From Nitrospinales bacterium (lineage in GTDB: Bacteria > Nitrospinota > Nitrospinia > Nitrospinales > JAJDAT01): a DNA stretch of 64,000 nucleotides. The translations under genes were made by a program, and so were the position numbers. The notes under the pieces are model-generated. The model had not been told where the DNA came from and did not search any database. It saw only the letters and a list, made by a program, of their open reading frames with translations. The stretch's first letter is position 1; the number at the start of each line of letters is the position of its first letter. Below, one piece after another: positions 6,750 through 61,091 of this stretch. Location: the NCBI GenBank assembly GCA_046757665.1, contig JBHHYO010000006.1:822-64821 (forward strand), read 5' to 3'.

Positions 6750-9452
6750 TTAAACCACATCCTCCACATTTTCTATCAAAAGAATTCCGATCAAACGTTC
6801 CTTGATTTGGCGCGTCAATCGGTCGAAGGTGATCTTTCCGCCGCGCAGGGAGACGTAGAACACGTCTATTCCGCGGTCGCCCCGGCAGGAAATTTTCGCG
6901 CGGTGAATCTGGACGCCAAAATCGACCAGGGCATGAACGATTTTATAAAGCATCCCCAGATGATCTCTTGCTTCGACGCGAATGACAGTATATGCAGGGT
7001 TGGACGAGTTATCAATTTGAATTTTGGGGACGACGGCTTTCCGCGGGGCGTTTTTGCCGACGTATCGCTTGCGCGCCGCCAGCAGTTCGGAAATCTCCCG
7101 CCGGTTTTCGAGAATATCCTGAAGGTTTTTTTCCACTTGGAGCCAAATTGCTTCGCTTGAGCCGTCTTCCCGGTTCGCGCCCTCGACTTGCAAGGTGACA
7201 ATGGTCGCATCGTCCCGTCTCAGGAATATCTGCGCTCCCAGAATGTTCAGGTTGTTTGCGGTGATGGCGCCCACCATGCTCTTGAACGTCCGGTCGTTTT
7301 TCATATAGCACAAAGTGACGTTGTGGTAAGCGCCGGCTTCGTTGAACAGGGAGGACAGGGCGAAACGGTTTTCTCCCACTACCCGCAGGAGGCGGAGGTG
7401 CTGGGCGACCTCGTCCGGAGGGGCCGTCAACCAGTAGTCGTCCGGCATCAGGTCCAGATGTTGCTCGATTTCCCAGGCAAAAAAATCCGCGTGGAGTTTG
7501 CGGTAAACCGCCAGCCGGGTGGAAAAACGCTTTTTATGGAGCAGTTCCGGATGCTCGAGATAATCTTTCGTGAAATGGTACAGCTCGGACAAAAGAAACT
7601 TTTTCCAGGAGGTCCAGGTGTCCGGGGCCACCGCTTTCAGTTCCGCGTAGGTGATCAAGTAGAGCAGTTCCAGGCGTTCCACGGTTCCCACCTTGGCGGC
7701 GAACGCTTGAATGGTGGACAGGTGTTGAATCTCCTGGTAAAAGGCGATTTCCGTCATCTCGTAAAGGTTGTCCAGGAGAAACAGCAGTATTTGCTTCTCT
7801 TCCGCCGGCAGTCCGTCGATGATGCTTGACGAGGCGGCGCCGTCCATGTCCTGCGCAAGCCGGCTGGGGTCCTTGCCCAGGGAGTGCAAAAGGGCGGCCA
7901 GCTTCAGCAGGCGCTTGTGAGGATTGGTTTTATGAATTTCCGCCAGCTCCCGCAGGTCGTTCTCCTCCGTGACGGCAAGGTGCTCCAGAAACCGCACCAT
8001 TCGCAATGAATGTTCGTCCGCGGTGTACCGGTGGTAAAAATCGTATTTGACCAGACAATGCGTGTGGCCGAACTCCGGCAGAATCTTGCCCAGAATGCCC
8101 ACCGCGTGCATCAGCCGCAGGGTTTTTTCCGCATCGGGGTTGTCGAGCAGGGACATCAGGAAATCCCCGGCCCGGTGTTCTTTTAAAAAGGCGTCGTCCA
8201 GCAGGTGCCGGTGGTTGCGGATTTGCCGTTTGAGCTGGGAATCGATTTCCAGGCCGTGCCTCCGGCACAGGTCGAATAATTCGAGGAGCAGGCGCTTGTT
8301 GTTCGTAAAGATTTCCGGTGCGCTGTCTTTCAGATGCAGAACCGATTTCAACGCAAAAAACCCGTTGCCCAGGTCCTTTTTGTTCAGGTTGCTGATGACT
8401 TTGCGGATGTACGGCCGCCGGGTTTGCAAACAACGCTGGAAAATGATCTCGGAAAAATTATAAATGTTTTTGGCGTGCAAAAAATAATCCCGCATGAATT
8501 GCTCGACGCGGTCGGTTTCGTTGATGTTCTGGTATCCCAGGTTGACGGCCAGGCCGGATTGGATGCCCAGCCGCAACACGTCGGACTTTTTGCCGAGCGA
8601 ATAATGGAGTTCGTTGCGGACGCGGAGAAAAAAATCGACGGAGCGGTTGAAACTTTTAAGCTCGTCTTCGGAAATAGCCGGGTTGTCGCCCATCTCGAGC
8701 AGGGAGAGAGAGCCCAACTGCGAGGCGACGCCCCACAACACGGTGTGATAATCCCTGAGACCGCCGGGGCCGTTTTTGATATCGGGTTCGGGGCGGCAGA
8801 CCCATTCGCTGGTGGAGCCGGAGCGGGCGCGGTTTTCGCCGAGTTTGACACTCAAAAACTTTTCGATATTTTTCTTCAAGGCGTTTTTGCCGAGGGCGCG
8901 CCCCAATTCCTCGAACAGGGCCGGGTTGCCCGCCAGGTAGCGCATCTCGATCATGGAAGTTTGCACGGTCAGGTCCGTCTTGGCCAACTCCAGACACTCC
9001 TTGACGCTCCGGCAACTGTGGCCGATTTCCAGGCCGAGCCCCCAGAGAACGGAAATGAAGTCCTGAATGAAATCGTCGGTGAGCGGCTGGATTTTCTTGC
9101 CGAGAATGAACAGCAGGTCGATATCCGAGCAGGGGTTGAGTTCGCCGCGGCCGTAACCGCCGACCGCCGCCAGGCCGAAAGGTTTCATCGTCTCCGCTCC
9201 GGCGTATCGCGGCAAGCGGGCCAGAGAGGCGACGGTTTGCCCGATGGCCTGGTCGATCAGCCCGGTGTGGGCCTGGATGACCTCGCGTCCGCCGGCGCCG
9301 GCGCGGTGCCAGCGCTTGATTTTCTCCCGCTCCTTTTGCAACAGCGCCTTGAACGAGTCGAAATAGGGCAGACGCGCCTTGGGGTCCTCCGGGATGTCCG
9401 GCATGGAACTGAAATCAATCTCGAATCGATACGGCGTTTCCACGTGATTCAT
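6750..9452 (-). CDS. glnD: [Protein-PII] uridylyltransferase GlnD
   Basis: AVGGYGRGEL..SDIDLL NTase, EPDIKNGPGGLRD, HD-like region, two C-terminal ACT domains. Confidence 0.93.
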   Translation of the reverse strand: MNHVETPYRFEIDFSSMPDIPEDPKARLPYFDSFKALLQKEREKIKRWHRAGAGGREVIQAHTGLIDQAIGQTVASLARLPRYAGAETMKPFGLAAVGGYGRGELNPCSDIDLLFILGKKIQPLTDDFIQDFISVLWGLGLEIGHSCRSVKECLELAKTDLTVQTSMIEMRYLAGNPALFEELGRALGKNALKKNIEKFLSVKLGENRARSGSTSEWVCRPEPDIKNGPGGLRDYHTVLWGVASQLGSLSLLEMGDNPAISEDELKSFNRSVDFFLRVRNELHYSLGKKSDVLRLGIQSGLAVNLGYQNINETDRVEQFMRDYFLHAKNIYNFSEIIFQRCLQTRRPYIRKVISNLNKKDLGNGFFALKSVLHLKDSAPEIFTNNKRLLLELFDLCRRHGLEIDSQLKRQIRNHRHLLDDAFLKEHRAGDFLMSLLDNPDAEKTLRLMHAVGILGKILPEFGHTHCLVKYDFYHRYTADEHSLRMVRFLEHLAVTEENDLRELAEIHKTNPHKRLLKLAALLHSLGKDPSRLAQDMDGAASSSIIDGLPAEEKQILLFLLDNLYEMTEIAFYQEIQHLSTIQAFAAKVGTVERLELLYLITYAELKAVAPDTWTSWKKFLLSELYHFTKDYLEHPELLHKKRFSTRLAVYRKLHADFFAWEIEQHLDLMPDDYWLTAPPDEVAQHLRLLRVVGENRFALSSLFNEAGAYHNVTLCYMKNDRTFKSMVGAITANNLNILGAQIFLRRDDATIVTLQVEGANREDGSSEAIWLQVEKNLQDILENRREISELLAARKRYVGKNAPRKAVVPKIQIDNSSNPAYTVIRVEARDHLGMLYKIVHALVDFGVQIHRAKISCRGDRGIDVFYVSLRGGKITFDRLTRQIKERLIGILLIENVEDVV

Positions 9453-10669: not shown

Positions 10670-11126
10670 CACACCTACCCCCGCAAGGCCATTTACCGGT
10701 TAGACTTCAAAGCGTTCCGCCTCCGGGACCCTGCACGCCGCGCATTATATAGGGGGATAAGAGCATTTGGAGGCAGGAACAAAGAGCCGGAGACCGGAGG
10801 CTGGAGACGGGGACCGGAAAGGCCGGGGAAACCTTTGTGCCTTCACGGTGATTTCAACATGGTAAATTTTAATCTTCAAAACGCAACCCTCGGCATAGTA
10901 AAATACTTATTTACAACTCGTTTTAAATCATATAGATACAAGTCAAAAGATGATCCGGGTTTTGGGGGCTTTTTCCGCGAAATTCGTTGATTTTTTACCT
11001 GACGGAAAACCGGGGCAACAGGTCGCGGTGCAAGGGGTTGTGGGGTTTGTGGGCTGACGTTTCGACTATTTCGTTCCTCGTTTTTCAAAAAAAATTTTTT
11101 CGTGAAAACCGGCTCCAGTCAGGCGC
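10670..11126. repeat. Bipartite ~460-bp non-coding element, copy 1 (nearly empty)
   Basis: Left arm about 10670-10830 and right arm 10846-11126 align with 56994-57120 and 57893-58171. Confidence 0.85.
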
Positions 11127-38075: not shown

Positions 38076-38503
38076 ACCGCAAAGGCGCAAAGAACGCAAA
38101 GGATTAAAGATTGAGAACAAGGCGTTCAATTCCGTCCTTGAGTACCGAGACATTAAAATTTATCAATAGACCCAATTTACATCCAGTCAGTTTCAAGTAT
38201 GTCAGGATTTGGGCTTTATGAATAGGCAGAAGCTTTTCCACGGCCTTGAGTTCCACGACGACTTGATTATCTACAAGGAAATCCAGGCGAAGGCCGCAAT
38301 CCATTAAAACGTCTTTATAAGAGGTTTGGCTGTTTCTTTTTGGAAGGGGATGTCTTGCAAGGCAAATTCGCGCGCCAAGCACTCTTGATAGATATTTTCC
38401 AGCAATCCTGGGCCAAGAGTTCGATGCACTTCAATACAAGCGCCGATGATTCTATTGGACCACTCATTCTCATCCATCTTTGCGGCCTTTGCGCCTTTGC
38501 GGT
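38076..38503. repeat. 26-bp inverted repeats (38076-38101 / 38478-38503) bracketing the GxxExxY gene
   Basis: accgcaaaggcgcaaagaacgcaaag vs reverse complement accgcaaaggcgcaaaggccgcaaag (24/26). Confidence 0.88.
38104..38477 (-). pseudogene. GxxExxY family (PD-(D/E)XK-like) protein, frameshifted near 38320
   Basis: Frame 1 MDENEW..VHRTLGPGLLENIY; frame 2 YKD..RLDFLV..VVELKAV..GLLINF. Confidence 0.85.
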
Positions 38504-38569
38504 TTATCCACCCTCTCAAATTGGAATGATTTTACCAGAAAATGCGGGGGGCGCGGGGATTTTCCGTTT

Positions 38570-56270: not shown

Positions 56271-56747
56271 TCAGATGCTTCCGTAAATCAGCCGGCCGAT
56301 CACGGCCTCCAGGTCGACGCCGGATTCGGTTTCCTGCAATACGCCGCCGGGGGGGACGATATTCGGCGACCCGCCGCGGGAAATCGTCAGAACCTTGTTT
56401 CCCATCAAACCCCGTGTTCGTACCGAAATGATGGAGTCATCCGGCAGGACGATGTCCTTGCGGATTCTCATTTCGACCCGCGCCATGTCATCGGAGGTCA
56501 GGGAAATTCCATCGACAACTCCGATCTTGATACCGGCGATTTCAATTTTAGCGCCTTCGCTCATTCCGACCACCGACTGAAAATCGGCGTACACCGTATA
56601 GGTTCCGCCCGGAAACCGGTCGCCGTTTATGAAAACGAATCCGGAACAAATGAAACTGATAACAAGGAACAACCAAATGTTGAAGCGCGGGCGCGACCCG
56701 GAAAAATTTTCGTGCTTCCTGTTTTGATTTTCGGATGGCGATAACAT
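56271..56747 (-). CDS. mlaD: MlaD/MCE-family lipid transport protein
   Basis: F.SV.G...GA.I.IAGI.IG.V..I, T.GLMG.K, ETESGVDLE. Confidence 0.85.
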   Translation of the reverse strand: MLSPSENQNRKHENFSGSRPRFNIWLFLVISFICSGFVFINGDRFPGGTYTVYADFQSVVGMSEGAKIEIAGIKIGVVDGISLTSDDMARVEMRIRKDIVLPDDSIISVRTRGLMGNKVLTISRGGSPNIVPPGGVLQETESGVDLEAVIGRLIYGSI

Positions 56748-56993
56748 GATCGGACCTCTGTTTAAAGTTTTCGTTAATTATCTTGATCGGAAAATTTTGC
56801 ACAGACCATACCAAAAAACAACGGCGTTACGTTTTTTTTAAAAGTTTCCAGAAGTACTTATTTAACAATAAGATAAAAAAATACCCAAAACCCCATAACC
56901 GTTGAAAAACGTCCGGTTAGTGGGAATAATGTAGGAATTTTTTGCAATTGATGTGCAGTTTTTTATTCTGCCGGGAGGGGGGAGTTCGCTTCA

Positions 56994-58171
56994 CACACCT
57001 ACCCCCATTGTCTTTTCAATCTGCCGGATCAAAAGGGTTTCCGCCGCCGCATACCTGCATTTGGCGTTATATGTAAGGGATAAAAACGGAGACCGGAGAC
57101 GGGAGGCCGGAAAAGCGGGGTAATCCATTAAGCTATCGTTTTTCATTCAGGGACAAGCATAAGCGCCATCGAGTGTATGAGATCGAGAGCCAATCGTTCT
57201 GTCTGGCCTGCGCGCATTTTGGTGTTTGCACAACGTCGAGAACCGGCAGGCGCATCAGACGGCTCGAGCACGAAGACACCAAGCTGAAATTAGAGAAGCA
57301 GTACCAAACAAGCGAGAGCCAGGCCATTTACAAACTCAGGAAAGCAAGAGTGGAGCATCCCTTTGGTCATATAAAGCGCAATTTGGGAGTCGGAGCCTTT
57401 TTGCTCAAAGGTCTCGACGGAGTCAAAGCGGAGATGGCGCTTCTGTCGAGCTGTTTTAACCTGTCACGGATGATCACCTTGCTTGGAGTACCAACGCTGG
57501 TCGCCAAGTTATCGGGATAAAGGGGGATGGAAACCCCGCATTCCTCTAAAAAAAACAGGCCCGGTTAACGAAGATAACGCTTAATCGGGTCGAAAAAAGG
57601 TTGGATTAAGAACGGCGTCTGTTTTGACCAATCCATATTTTCAAAAACGCTACCTCCGCTTTTTTTAATCCTGTTGTGACACAGCCTGAGAGCGTGGGAA
57701 CGAGGGGGAACAAGAGCGCGGCGCGTGGGAACGAGGATGCGAAACGTGGATGGGAACGAGGAAAGAAAAATCCCCTAAACCTCCTCCCTTGAAGGGGGCT
57801 TTTCTGTGTCTATCTGTGTCCCCTTCGACAGGCTCAGGGCAGACATCGGTGGTTCAGTTTTTTTGCTTTTCTTTGCGCCCTTGGCGGCTTTGCGGTGATT
57901 TCGGCATGGTAAATTTTAATCTTCAAACGGCGGGGTTCGATATACCAAAACGCATTTTTGCAAATCATTTAAAATCATACGGATAAAAGACAAAATGCGA
58001 TCCGGTTTTTGGGCCGTTTTGCCGCGAAATTCGTTGATTTTTACCTGACCGCCAGCCGGGGAAACGGCTTGCGGCGCAATGGGTTGCCGATTTTGCTACC
58101 TGACGTTTCGACTATTTCGTTCCTCGTTTTTCAAAAAAAAATTTTTACGAAAATCGGCTCCGGTCAGGCGC
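56994..58171. repeat. Bipartite non-coding element, copy 2 (about 770 bp between the arms)
   Basis: Left arm 56994-57120 and right arm 57893-58171 homologous to 10670-11126. Confidence 0.85.
57119..57687 (+). mobile_element. IS1182-family remnant: 3' part of transposase plus right inverted repeat
   Basis: GNPLSY...C..C..FGVCT...Y.LRK..VEHPFG.IK..LG...F.L.G...V..E..L....FNL (stop 57520); terminus ttgtgacacagcct at 57674-57687. Confidence 0.8.
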
Positions 58172-58200
58172 TGTCATGGTTCGACGGGCTCACCATGACA
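58172..58200. repeat. REP-like hairpin abutting the right end of the element
   Basis: tgtcatggt-tcgacgggctc-accatgaca; shares the ttcgac.ggctca core with 57821-57843. Confidence 0.7.
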
Positions 58201-58319
58201 GGAATGCGGGCGGGCTCGGTCAGGCCCCGGTCATGTCTGCCGAAGGGCTTTGCATGAGAGGGACGCTCAACCGGCAGGTCGTGAAGGGGGTGGTTTCGGG
58301 TTTTTGTTCGTGTTGGGGG

Positions 58320-61091
58320 TCAGACTTGCCAGCCTTTGACCGTGCAAAGTTTGAGCAGGGCGGGCAGGAGGGTGACCGAGGCGACCAGGCAACTGCCCAC
58401 GCCCAGGGTGAGCACCAGGCCCAGGCTGTAAATCCCCTGGTGGTCCGCCACCATCAGGCTACCAAAACCGATCATGGTGGTCAGGGAGCTGACCACTACG
58501 GCCCGGCCCGTGCTTTTGGAGAGCACGCAGATTTCCTTGTTCGCTTCTTCCCGATAACGGTGGATGATGTGGACTCCGGCGACAACCCCGATGCCGATGA
58601 TCAAGGGCAAAATGACCAGGTTGGCCAGGTTGAATTTCACGTTCAGCCAGTCCATGATGCCGATGGTCCAAACCGAGCCGACCAGCGTCGGCAAGAGGAT
58701 GAGGAAAGTCGTCCGCAGGTTTTTGCAGGTGGTCAGGATATAAAGGAAAATGGCGGCCATGGCGTAAATGCCGCCCTTGATGTAGCCTTCCTTCATAAGG
58801 CGGCTGGATTCGTACATGTGGACGGCGTTGCCGGTGACATTGGGATCGATTTGCCGGATTTGCCGGAGGAACTGCTCCATGGCCTGGCGTTCCCAGATGC
58901 TGATGTTGGGAAACACGGAGATCAGGTATTTGCCGGTTTTGCCGATGAATCGTTTCCGCAGGGAGTGGGGCAGGTCTTCGATGCGCACCGGGGTGGGATG
59001 CGCCGCGGTTTGCAGGTCGCGGATTTTTTCCCGGTAGTCGGCGAACAGTTTTTCCGAGTAGAGGCTCAGCCGCCGGGCGGCCGTGTCTTCGTCCAGGTTG
59101 CGGATGTCGCGCAAGAATTTTTGCGCCCAGTAGTGGGCTTCCTCCACCGAACCGGGCTCGATTTGTTCCAGGCCGGTGTCCGGCGTTTTTTCCCGGCTTC
59201 TGAGCTTGAACACAATCCGCTTCATGGTCCGCGTCAGCCCTTTTACGGACAGGATGCTGTCTTCGGGTTCGACTTCCAGGCCATCCAGCATGGGAGCGAG
59301 CGTTTTGATCGTTTCGATTTTTTGTTCCTGGTTGTCGGGCAGAATGGAGACGATGCTTTCGGCGTTGCCGACGGTGGGCAGGGCCTTGATGAGCTTCAGT
59401 TTTCGTTTGGCCTCGTCGAGGGAAGAGGTGATTACCGCGGCGTACCAGGTGGAGCGCTTGGCGCCTTCGATGATTTTCAATTCATACTGGACGGCCTCGG
59501 TTCCCTTGGCTTGCAGTTTGAGGATGTTGTAATCGAAGGTGAGGTCTTTCAGCGACCACCCCGCCCAGACGACCGACACGGCGGAAATCACAATGATCCA
59601 CCGGTAATGGTCGAAAACCCGGTCCAGGGTTTTTGAGTTCGCCGTCTGGACGGAGCGGTTTCGATAGATGTTGCCGCGGTGTTTTTCCTCCAGGGTGACC
59701 AGGGCCGGCAACAGGAGGATCATCGCCACGAAGCAGAGTATTATGCCGCCGCCGGCGATCCAGCCCAGCTCGGCGATTCCCTTGAAATCGGTCAACGTCA
59801 TCGCGCCGAAGGCGATGGCGGTGGTGATGGCGCCGGCAAAGTTTCCCATGCCGGTGCCGCGGATGGTTTTTTCCAGTGCGGTGATGATGTCCTTTCCGGA
59901 CGATCGTTCCTCCCGGTATCTTTCGAGGATATGAACGCCGAAGTCGATGCCCAGGCCGATCAGGATGGTGGTGAACACAACGGACAGAATGTTCAGGTGT
60001 CCGACGGTCAGGGTGGTAAACCCCATCGCCCAGCAAATGCCGATGACCAGCGAAAACACCGCCAGCAACGGTTTGACGATGCCTCTGAAAAAAGCCACGA
60101 ACAGGAGCACCACGCCCACGAGGGCAATCTGCGAGGCGCGGGTGACGTCGTGCAGGGTCACCACCATTTCGTCGGAGGCGATCACGTCGCCGCCGGTCAG
60201 GCCGACCTGGACATCCGGAAACCGCGGTTTCAGGCCGCGGATCAAACTGCGGATGACTTCAATGGATTTTCTCGATCCGGTAAAATCGTTCTTGGTCGCC
60301 TTGGGTTTGAGGAGAATGAACATCATGCGCTCGTCCTTGGACACCAGATAACCTTTGTTGGCGAGGGAGTCCTTTCGGTCGGACAAAAAGGATTGCCAGG
60401 GCGAGCGAAAATGCGTTTCCCCGTTCAGATAGGCCGTCATCTGTTTGAGGATCGAAATCAGCAAGCCCAGGTCGGCGCTGTCATCCTCCGGGCCTTCACT
60501 GGAGTCCTCATCGCCCAGAAAATCGGAGAGCAGGGTTTCCACCATCCCCGAGCTGATTTTCGCGTTGATGCTTCTGAGTAGCTGGTTCAAGCCCGGCGCG
60601 GCGTTGACATCTTCCAGGAAATCCTGGTGGGCTTCGATTTTTTCCTTCAGGTCCTGCAATTCGTGAGGCTTGAGGTACAGGAGCGCCCGTTTTTTGAAAT
60701 AGGCGGTATCCACCTGGTAAAAGATTTGCGAGAAAACGGAATGCTTCGTATTCAATTCCTGCGCCAGGGCGTGGGTGAAGCCTTCCATCTGGTCGGGATT
60801 GTTGCCTTCCACGACGATGATCATGCCGTCGAAATTTTCGAATTCCTGGCGGTAGGCTTCATTGCGCTGGTTGTAGGGGAGGTCTTTGGAAACCAGGTCC
60901 CCCCGGCTGGTATTGAATTTCAGGAAGTGGCTGGTCACCCATATGGAAGCCAGGGCCAACAGGAGGGAAAACAGAATGACGGTTTTGGAATAGGCGTAGG
61001 CGAACCGCTCCACCTTGACCAACAGCCGGTTGACCCCTCCGGGGGACTTGTCGGACGTTGGCGGTACTTTGGCTGAGACGGGCGAAACCAT
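58320..61091 (-). CDS. MMPL/RND transporter, HpnN-like (hopanoid export)
   Basis: Two 6-TM halves, GLGIDFGVH, large periplasmic loops. Confidence 0.85.
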   Translation of the reverse strand: MVSPVSAKVPPTSDKSPGGVNRLLVKVERFAYAYSKTVILFSLLLALASIWVTSHFLKFNTSRGDLVSKDLPYNQRNEAYRQEFENFDGMIIVVEGNNPDQMEGFTHALAQELNTKHSVFSQIFYQVDTAYFKKRALLYLKPHELQDLKEKIEAHQDFLEDVNAAPGLNQLLRSINAKISSGMVETLLSDFLGDEDSSEGPEDDSADLGLLISILKQMTAYLNGETHFRSPWQSFLSDRKDSLANKGYLVSKDERMMFILLKPKATKNDFTGSRKSIEVIRSLIRGLKPRFPDVQVGLTGGDVIASDEMVVTLHDVTRASQIALVGVVLLFVAFFRGIVKPLLAVFSLVIGICWAMGFTTLTVGHLNILSVVFTTILIGLGIDFGVHILERYREERSSGKDIITALEKTIRGTGMGNFAGAITTAIAFGAMTLTDFKGIAELGWIAGGGIILCFVAMILLLPALVTLEEKHRGNIYRNRSVQTANSKTLDRVFDHYRWIIVISAVSVVWAGWSLKDLTFDYNILKLQAKGTEAVQYELKIIEGAKRSTWYAAVITSSLDEAKRKLKLIKALPTVGNAESIVSILPDNQEQKIETIKTLAPMLDGLEVEPEDSILSVKGLTRTMKRIVFKLRSREKTPDTGLEQIEPGSVEEAHYWAQKFLRDIRNLDEDTAARRLSLYSEKLFADYREKIRDLQTAAHPTPVRIEDLPHSLRKRFIGKTGKYLISVFPNISIWERQAMEQFLRQIRQIDPNVTGNAVHMYESSRLMKEGYIKGGIYAMAAIFLYILTTCKNLRTTFLILLPTLVGSVWTIGIMDWLNVKFNLANLVILPLIIGIGVVAGVHIIHRYREEANKEICVLSKSTGRAVVVSSLTTMIGFGSLMVADHQGIYSLGLVLTLGVGSCLVASVTLLPALLKLCTVKGWQV

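Follow-up and report, generated by a model that had tools for sequence, protein, structure and literature searches.

Bacterial interspersed mosaic elements (BIMEs), known from enterobacteria, are extragenic mosaics of repetitive extragenic palindromic (REP) sequences, and enterobacterial repetitive intergenic consensus (ERIC) sequences are dispersed intergenic repeats whose copies differ by small repeats inserted internally. A comparable structure is described here in a 64,000-nucleotide stretch of DNA from a Nitrospinales bacterium (the window; positions 822–64821 of contig C6), where the intergenic region between mlaD and an MMPL transporter gene holds the remnant of an insertion sequence (IS) of the IS1182 family, lying in a REP target inside a single copy of a BIME-like mosaic element specific to this lineage. 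This element, referred to below as the arm element, consists of a left (L) arm, a variable zone of small repeat modules, a right (R) arm and a short second variable zone. The source genome (G000) is a draft of 2.97 Mb in 160 contigs with 54.8% G+C and a completeness of 97.6%; C-numbers denote its contigs, and L011, L012 and L016–L095 are loci from other collections or a metagenome.

Like the BIMEs, the arm element is an extragenic, multi-copy mosaic of palindromes with conserved linkers and variable modules (PMC3333891, in part): the genome contains 11 intact REP palindromes (GTTCCCACGC-N3-GCGTGGGAAC), 99 matches of a hairpin family typified by TTCGACNNGCTCA and 165 end motifs of a palindromic element of about 110 nt, and REPs occur together with conserved linkers in maps of 26 copies. 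Unlike the BIMEs, it has two long non-palindromic end modules (~120 and 300 nt), is confined to one lineage and resides in a genome with no gene for a REP-associated tyrosine transposase (RAYT). With the REP doublets forming hairpins (REPINs) that accompany RAYT genes it shares short palindromic repeats, paired or single, in intergenic DNA (PMC3116915, in part), but no Y1 transposase is present here and the gene-linked repeats instead flank GxxExxY and GIY-YIG genes. As in ERIC sequences and nested miniature inverted-repeat transposable elements (PMC3184786, in part), an intergenic repeat carries extra small repeats inside; in contrast to these, the arms do not form an inverted pair, and inspection of 24 copies by eye revealed neither terminal inverted repeats nor target-site duplications at the outer borders.

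Read from left to right, the locus comprises:

56995–57117, plus strand: L arm, with the core CATACCTGCA-N5-GCGCTATAT-N-TAAGGG (blastn, core matches and an alignment of 28 copies).
57118–57689, plus strand: 3' remnant of an IS1182-family element, its junction with the L arm lying in a shared GGG.
57122–57520, plus strand: transposase frame, the last ~130 residues (NF033551 and the list of open reading frames), non-functional, with the N-terminal three quarters missing.
57674–57689, plus strand: right terminal inverted repeat of the IS, TTGTGACACAGCCTGA, 16 nt, with a perfect complement at the other end of a remnant on C9.
57690–57704, plus strand: right half of a REP palindrome (GAGCGTGGGAAC followed by GAG), left half missing, forming the flank of the IS target.
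57721–57761, plus strand: two more right-half copies, gcgcgtgggaacgag (57721–57735) and ggatgggaacgagg (57748–57761).
57768–57800, plus strand: module M2, a T-rich run preceded by a weak hairpin, with a terminator-like match at 57780–57798.
57803–57854, plus strand: module M3 (57803–57820, M3a, and 57844–57854, M3b), split by the 23-nt module M4 (57821–57843).
57871–58170, plus strand: R arm, its first 28 nt being module M5 (41 blastn matches, alignment of 24 copies).
58171–58224, plus strand: second small variable zone, a full TTCGAC..GCTCA hairpin and then a terminal AATGCGGGCGGGCTCGGTCAGG.

A preliminary description of this DNA had read 57119–57898 as a truncated IS1182 followed by a train of half-repeats. 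The ends that it gave for the IS were borne out, the left break expected near 57119 being found at 57118–57120 and the right end, placed at 57687, at 57689, where the 16-nt terminal inverted repeat closes the element. The translation of 57122–57520 matches Pfam DDE_Tnp_1_6 (PF13751) with an E value of 3e-17, and its best NCBIfam model is IS1182 (NF033551; positions 377–488 of 488, E 1.6e-22), the score of 80 bits staying under the curated cut-off of 270 bits because the transposase of the window is a fragment. Three remnants of the element were seen in the genome (in the window, on C9 and on C80) and no intact copy was found there, the window holding the sole DDE_Tnp_1_6 match of the genome. 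The second remnant, at C9:20913–21495, has internal deletions, keeps pieces of the N-terminal transposase and is closed at both ends by perfect 16-nt terminal inverted repeats (TCAGGCTGTGTCACAA and TTGTGACACAGCCTGA), of which the window retains the right one only. The segments 57118–57141 and 57549–57707 recur at C9:21078–20895 (100% and 98%), and since C9 carries transposase coding sequence directly upstream of the 24 nt that open the window fragment, the window copy was cut inside the gene. Both sequences read GGG at the truncation junction, which is a microhomology. The wider region on C9 (20349–21760) contains two arm elements head to head with the IS remnant between them, the right-hand element being devoid of both L arm and R arm.

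The target of the IS can be read from the other two remnants. The one on C9 is bounded by GTTCCCACGCTC and GAGCGTGGGAAC, the two halves of the REP palindrome, and at C80:6907–6950 a 20-nt solo IS end interrupts a REP palindrome that otherwise has its customary surroundings; the IS therefore inserts into the REP loop. In the window, the first copy of gcgtgggaacgag is the right half of this target, an orphan whose left half was lost with the deletion, and to this extent the earlier proposal that left halves had been deleted holds. The flanks of the IS are themselves palindromic, so that the border and any target-site duplication cannot be told apart. Insertion into the REP palindrome with the halves left as flanks is also the behaviour of the REP-targeting elements IS1397, ISKpn1, IS621, ISPpu9/10, ISPa11 and ISRm22; unlike those, the element found here belongs to the IS1182 family and is known from three remnants with no intact copy. 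REP targeting is reported for IS3, IS110, IS4, IS256 and IS5, and IS1182 is absent from the part of that account drawn on here (Tobes and Pareja 2006, PMC1525189).

The three copies of gcgtgggaacgag that had been described are present, two exact ones at 57692 and 57723 and one at 57748 that has two mismatches (spacing 31 and 25 nt). When up to two mismatches are allowed the motif occurs four times in the window, a number not above chance given that 17 of 100 shuffles reach it, and what stands out is the pair of exact copies at a distance of 31 nt, not the raw count. The sequence gggaacgagg directly before M2 is also found at the same place in the copy on C109; the third gcgtgggaacgag-like copy is therefore native to the arm element. 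The 10-mer of the REP palindrome has 33 matches in the genome, two of them between arms. As a separate observation, 57755–57768, made up of the last REP half and a run of A, is complementary at 13 of 14 positions to an invariant block of the R arm (58115–58128).

The remainder of the train, which had been taken to consist of half-repeats from about five different REP-like families built up at this point, is shared with other copies of the arm element. With at most three mismatches allowed, M2, M3a, M4 and M3b stand side by side in the same order at C2:19139–19225 and C92:8954–9040, and an M5-like sequence comes next; as a whole, the shared order on C92 spans 8954–9084. A module map covering 26 R-arm starts gives the order M2>M3a>M4>M3b>M5 for the window, C2 and C92, M3a>M4>M3b for C9 and C63, and the module without M4 for C22 and C39; parts of the train recur at C63, C9:302–335, C9:21660–21735, C119, C22 and C39. 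The motif at 57768–57800 is present as described and is matched at four other loci with three mismatches. The nested insertion suggested for 57821–57843 is corroborated by other copies, as the two halves of M3 abut without it at C22, C39 and C41 and are split by M4 in the same manner at C2, C63, C92 and twice on C9. Each of the 24 aligned copies has M5 at the start of its R arm, the motif being of the CTTTGCG, CTCTGTG or CTCGGCG type. Most occurrences of these modules in the genome lie between arms, a space of ~6 kb (M2 10/12, M3a 14/18, M5 17/25). The count of about five families does not survive, with three of the motifs almost confined to the arm element: in this genome M2, M3 and M5 are parts of that element and not separate genome-wide families, and among the motifs of the train only the REP palindrome and the TTCGACNNGCTCA hairpin (TTCGAC..GCTCA; nine of its 99 matches between arms) are genome-wide in truth. 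M4 is a stunted member of the latter family and folds weakly (z +0.91), and M2 folds at -5 kcal/mol here (z -1.24), other copies having a better 8-bp stem. The impression that the repeats are mostly unpaired is correct for this copy: 57687–57905 folds worse than 200 of 200 shuffles (z +2.96), and the motifs folded singly give z values from -1.64 to +0.91.

The copy number of the arm element also changes the contrast between a 'loaded' and an 'empty' copy on which the preliminary description relied. Searching the genome with the arms by blastn returned 41 R-arm and 40 L-arm matches, many at contig ends, with 24 L–R pairs, and the number of dispersed copies in the 2.97 Mb is put at ~34–41. The gap between L and R arm measures 775 nt at this locus and 75–417 nt for the remaining pairs. 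It follows that almost all copies are 'loaded' and that the 'empty' one, at ~10.66–11.14 kb, is a decayed exception. It does keep, in the aligned position, the degenerate version of the last repeat that had been noted:

10848–11125, plus strand: the R arm belonging to the 'empty' copy (79% identity), with degenerate versions of M5 and the L arm ahead of it.

Minimal variable zones of 51–158 nt are found in C88, C109, C27, C17 and C9, and in C1, C95, C54 and C41 the inner segment is inverted between left and right inverted repeats. The L core CATACCTGCA-N5-GCGCTATAT has 34 matches in the genome; the L arm begins at a sharp border, ACACCT, in the alignment of 28 copies, and its tail is a 7-nt tandem repeat of CGGAGAC (3.6 copies, 57087–57111). 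Within the R arm, the 21-mer GACTATTTCGTTCCTCGTTTT (58110–58130) occurs 34 times in the genome, 32 times exactly, though the arms as a whole are only 70–87% alike. This 21-mer has no match in 101 other genomes of the order and none in the genome_contigs collection, a DNA search of 40 relatives with the R arm yielded nothing beyond two ~30-nt chance-level matches, and outside the source genome the arm element was found only on two contigs of one metagenome. An end of the form GCGGGCGGG-N2-CGGTCAGG comes after many R arms, and the orientation of the copies relative to neighbouring genes follows no rule. Two smaller observations concern the arms themselves: the L-tail heptamers at 57091–57101 and the R end GGCTCCGGTC at 58155–58165 form an internal 11-nt inverted pair (10/11), and a candidate WATCAANNNNTT-like site was seen by eye in the R arm.

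The stretch 57119–57898 is non-coding debris, a broken IS and repeat pieces inside one copy of a ~40-copy intergenic element, and the cargo is without function of its own. An Rfam scan of 56700–58400 gave no match at E values up to 1 except a chance-level intron hit. On the left, mlaD (56271–56747, minus strand, Pfam MlaD) and, on the right, the MMPL transporter gene (58320–61091, minus strand) enclose the region; the MlaD protein of the window has matches in no more than two genomes of the order (46–48% identity), in neither of which an MMPL gene stands next to it.

Taken together, 57119–57898 is probably the variable central part of a single copy of an intergenic mosaic repeat specific to this lineage, with the IS and the deletion being local and the module train inherited. 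The anatomy, the sharing of the module and the IS target are seen directly in the sequences. As to the order of events, we infer that a REP palindrome in the variable zone first received an IS1182-family element in its loop, and that a deletion at the GGG microhomology may then have removed the left part of the IS, the left half of the palindrome and the intervening DNA up to the tail of the L arm. From 57768 on, the sequence is a ready-made module found in other copies too, which may have been passed down along with the element or moved from copy to copy through recombination, and the last motif of the train, M5, belongs to the R arm.

Several findings weigh against this account. C2, which shares the full train, is of the other R-arm subtype; simple vertical inheritance is thus insufficient, and recombination would have to be invoked as the route by which the module spread. 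The 110-nt palindromic element is found in at least four different module contexts, so that several insertions between the arms would be independent of one another. At the metagenome locus L011, orthologous to the end of C15 plus C129 (flanks about 85–87% identical), both orthologues have the arm element, and their variable zones differ by whole modules. The 110-nt element occurs 15 times between arms and 50 times elsewhere (2.4 vs 0.23 per kb), and the TTCGACNNGCTCA hairpin nine times in ~6.1 kb between arms and 43 times in ~214 kb of other intergenic DNA (1.5 vs 0.20 per kb); the mask behind these figures is crude, any six-frame open reading frame of 120 aa having been counted as coding, and the counts are not independent because the arm copies are paralogues. 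In the assembly, finally, 57578–57684 is without an exact bridging contig, and 57549–57701 is represented only by a contig of the C9 variant.

These densities, ~8–10 times those in other intergenic DNA, support a hotspot at the level of the family. The preliminary description had gone further and regarded the train as a record of serial, nested insertions at this one point whose left halves were later deleted, as expected of a hotspot or polarised cassette array. Mapping the motifs genome-wide, as it had proposed, confirms their enrichment between the arms, and 15 of the 19 mixed clusters (at least three families within 300 nt) lie within 600 nt of an arm, a count that is partly circular because three of the seven families counted are arm-specific. 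Serial insertion would also account for the nesting of the 23-nt M4 in M3, for the like orientation of all half-motifs of this copy and for the turnover of modules between orthologues, and toxin-antitoxin-like gene pairs were likewise seen by eye after L arms on C53 and C54. On the other hand, the motif order including the nested 23-mer recurs at other loci, M5 lies within the R arm in 24/24 aligned copies, the inner segment is found in both orientations, between the modules of the first variable zone there is no recurrent recombination site, and the genome is devoid of a RAYT gene (PF01797). Serial insertion at this point is therefore quite unlikely; of the earlier claim, the hotspot stands for the family as a whole, through the repeat density and the turnover between orthologues, and the polarity falls with the inversions in C1, C95, C54 and C41. 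With integron cassette arrays the locus has in common only the idea of ordered units piling up at one site, since it shows no polarity and mostly no genes, and attC-like repeats were not noticed either (no search for an integrase was made).

Some further observations on the cargo of arm copies can be added. L arms without an R arm are followed by toxin-antitoxin-like gene pairs at C53:1–900 and C54:16290–17400, the pair on C54 being placed between two L arms, and at C31:29480–29930 a small gene comes after an L arm without an R arm (all by eye). The ~110-nt palindromic element (GTCATCGCGAGCCGCC ... GCGATGAC type; ~80 places, for instance C2:18990–19110) outnumbers every other repeat in the genome and is a frequent cause of contig breaks.

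In a second alternative, the train between the arms would belong to a functional unit, be it a transcript running from a TATAT box in the L arm to the hairpin and T-run of M2 or a protein-binding array, with its order kept by selection. In its favour, the R arm is 90.6% identical in one orthologous pair (261/288 ungapped columns), against 78.7% at the four-fold sites of the next gene (n=164; binomial p about 5e-8 for the R-arm excess), the 21-mer is exact in 32/34 copies though the arms differ by 13–30% overall, and M2 scores terminator-like. However, the comparison rests on that single pair, in which the L arm is 83% identical and not above synonymous sites (p 0.14), neither the L arm nor the remainder of the arms yielded a sigma-70-like promoter, and RNAalifold on 24 R-arm copies gives only -7.4 kcal/mol with compensatory change at 4/36 pairs. 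Together with the absence, inversion or replacement of modules in many copies, this makes a selected function of the train improbable.

The arms themselves are a different matter. A structured RNA was considered for the R arm and set aside in view of the weak RNAalifold consensus, the few compensatory pairs and the lack of a credible Rfam match, and a small protein is ruled out by 1-nt indels among the copies. Conservation of the R arm follows sequence blocks, not structure. Judging from these alignments, the arms appear to be a constrained element for which a role at the level of DNA, in protein binding or mobility, seems more likely than one as structured RNA.

An assembly artefact linking the IS fragment or the train to the arms by way of repeats is highly improbable: the draft does consist of 160 contigs with many arm copies at contig ends, 57549–57701 is shared with C9, and the R arm is bridged by fragments and by no single contig, but a 7063-nt contig covers 56700–57578 and a 158-nt contig 57684–57841, both with 0 differences and both in two runs (which come from one study, possibly on the source sample, and so are not independent support), and the C9 remnant has its own, different flanks at both ends. 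Of the chimera that the preliminary description had named as a risk, the key joins are thus cleared by exact contigs, namely the junction of L arm and IS and the passage from the IS end through the REP halves to M2 and M4; the joins that matter most are supported, and the full bridge is not.

A driver of the arm element was sought among several candidates. No TnpB was found in the genome that could mark an autonomous, TnpB-carrying version; the sole IS110-type transposase lies on C124, away from arms; a 23S-IVP gene as autonomous partner is absent from the genome; and the only DUF559 match is inside a 1023-aa frame. The pair L012 and C25:19400–19760 was tried as a clean empty site and proved to be a decayed relic, with the metagenome contig also ending inside the element. 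In L012 the R arm is complete and comes with a series of modules that each end in CGGTCAGG; at the corresponding place, C25:19400–19760 has only scattered arm-like fragments, a decay by deletion. Elsewhere, at C101:6100–6820 (reverse), inspection by eye showed a textbook sigma-54-type site, TGGCAT-N5-TTGCT, before a flgC-like gene, with an L arm ~200 nt upstream of that site, and at C3:52000–52900 (reverse) an L arm with variable zone and no R arm abuts a candidate tRNA gene on the other strand.

The last motif of the train connects the locus to a small nuclease gene of the window:

38076–38519, minus strand: sole GxxExxY (PDDEXK_3) gene of the genome, frameshifted, with inverted repeats at 38076–38101 and 38478–38503.

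The reading frame spans 38104–38519 and its flanks are an M5-type inverted repeat. The likeness that had been pointed out between 57871–57898 and 38478–38503 amounts to 23 of 26 identical bases over 57871–57896, with no match in shuffles. The closest relatives of this gene are in Nitrospinota genomes, which hints only weakly at the taxon because the gene may be mobile. The notion that the motif belongs to inverted repeats around GxxExxY genes is backed by loci from other genomes, of which 80 were kept (L016–L095) and 70 with full flanks used: inverted flanks (score at least 14) occur at 55/70 loci, from other phyla, against 18/70 when flanks are paired across loci and 20/70 in direct orientation. 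These flanks are three tandem 8–9-mers in CGCAAAG, CACAGAG or CACGGAG flavours, and M5 fits the pattern of the right repeat, tandem 8–9-mers of the CTTTGCG type ending in GGT. M5 resembles the foreign flanks at 22/70 loci, against 0/70 in the reversed control, and such likeness is seen for M3 at 4/70 loci and for M2 and the REP half at 0/70. The sole small GIY-YIG gene of the genome (C47:15500–16400) is flanked by inverted TTCGACNNGCTCA hairpins (local score 21). Of the genes proposed to sit between intact repeat pairs, GxxExxY and GIY-YIG were thus recovered; for RAYT (Y1 transposase, PF01797) the 97.6%-complete genome gave no match, and DUF559 did not extend beyond the long frame mentioned above. 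No description of an association between GxxExxY or GIY-YIG genes and such repeats was found in the open-access literature of PubMed Central and bioRxiv.

A tentative and rather improbable joint reading starts from the arm element as a conserved, lineage-specific family of ~34–40 non-coding loci whose R arm would be under purifying selection and whose inter-arm zone would be a tolerated landing site. Small selfish DNA of several kinds would settle there: hairpins of the REP type, REP-seeking IS elements, gene pairs of the toxin-antitoxin kind, and inverted repeats that go with small nuclease genes. In connection with this, GxxExxY and small GIY-YIG genes between hairpin or triple-9-mer inverted repeats could drive RAYT-independent REP-like families in many phyla.

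The single locus matters little, being decayed mobile DNA between mlaD and an MMPL gene, and it serves as a worked example of how a two-copy contrast of 'loaded' and 'empty' can mislead when ~40 copies exist. Three leads emerge from it: an IS1182-family element that targets REP palindromes, a family outside the five listed in the part of the account cited above (Tobes and Pareja 2006, PMC1525189); a mosaic element restricted to one lineage, with an R arm that seems to be under constraint; and nuclease genes framed by repeats that litter the genome, which could account for REP-like families in genomes that have no RAYT.

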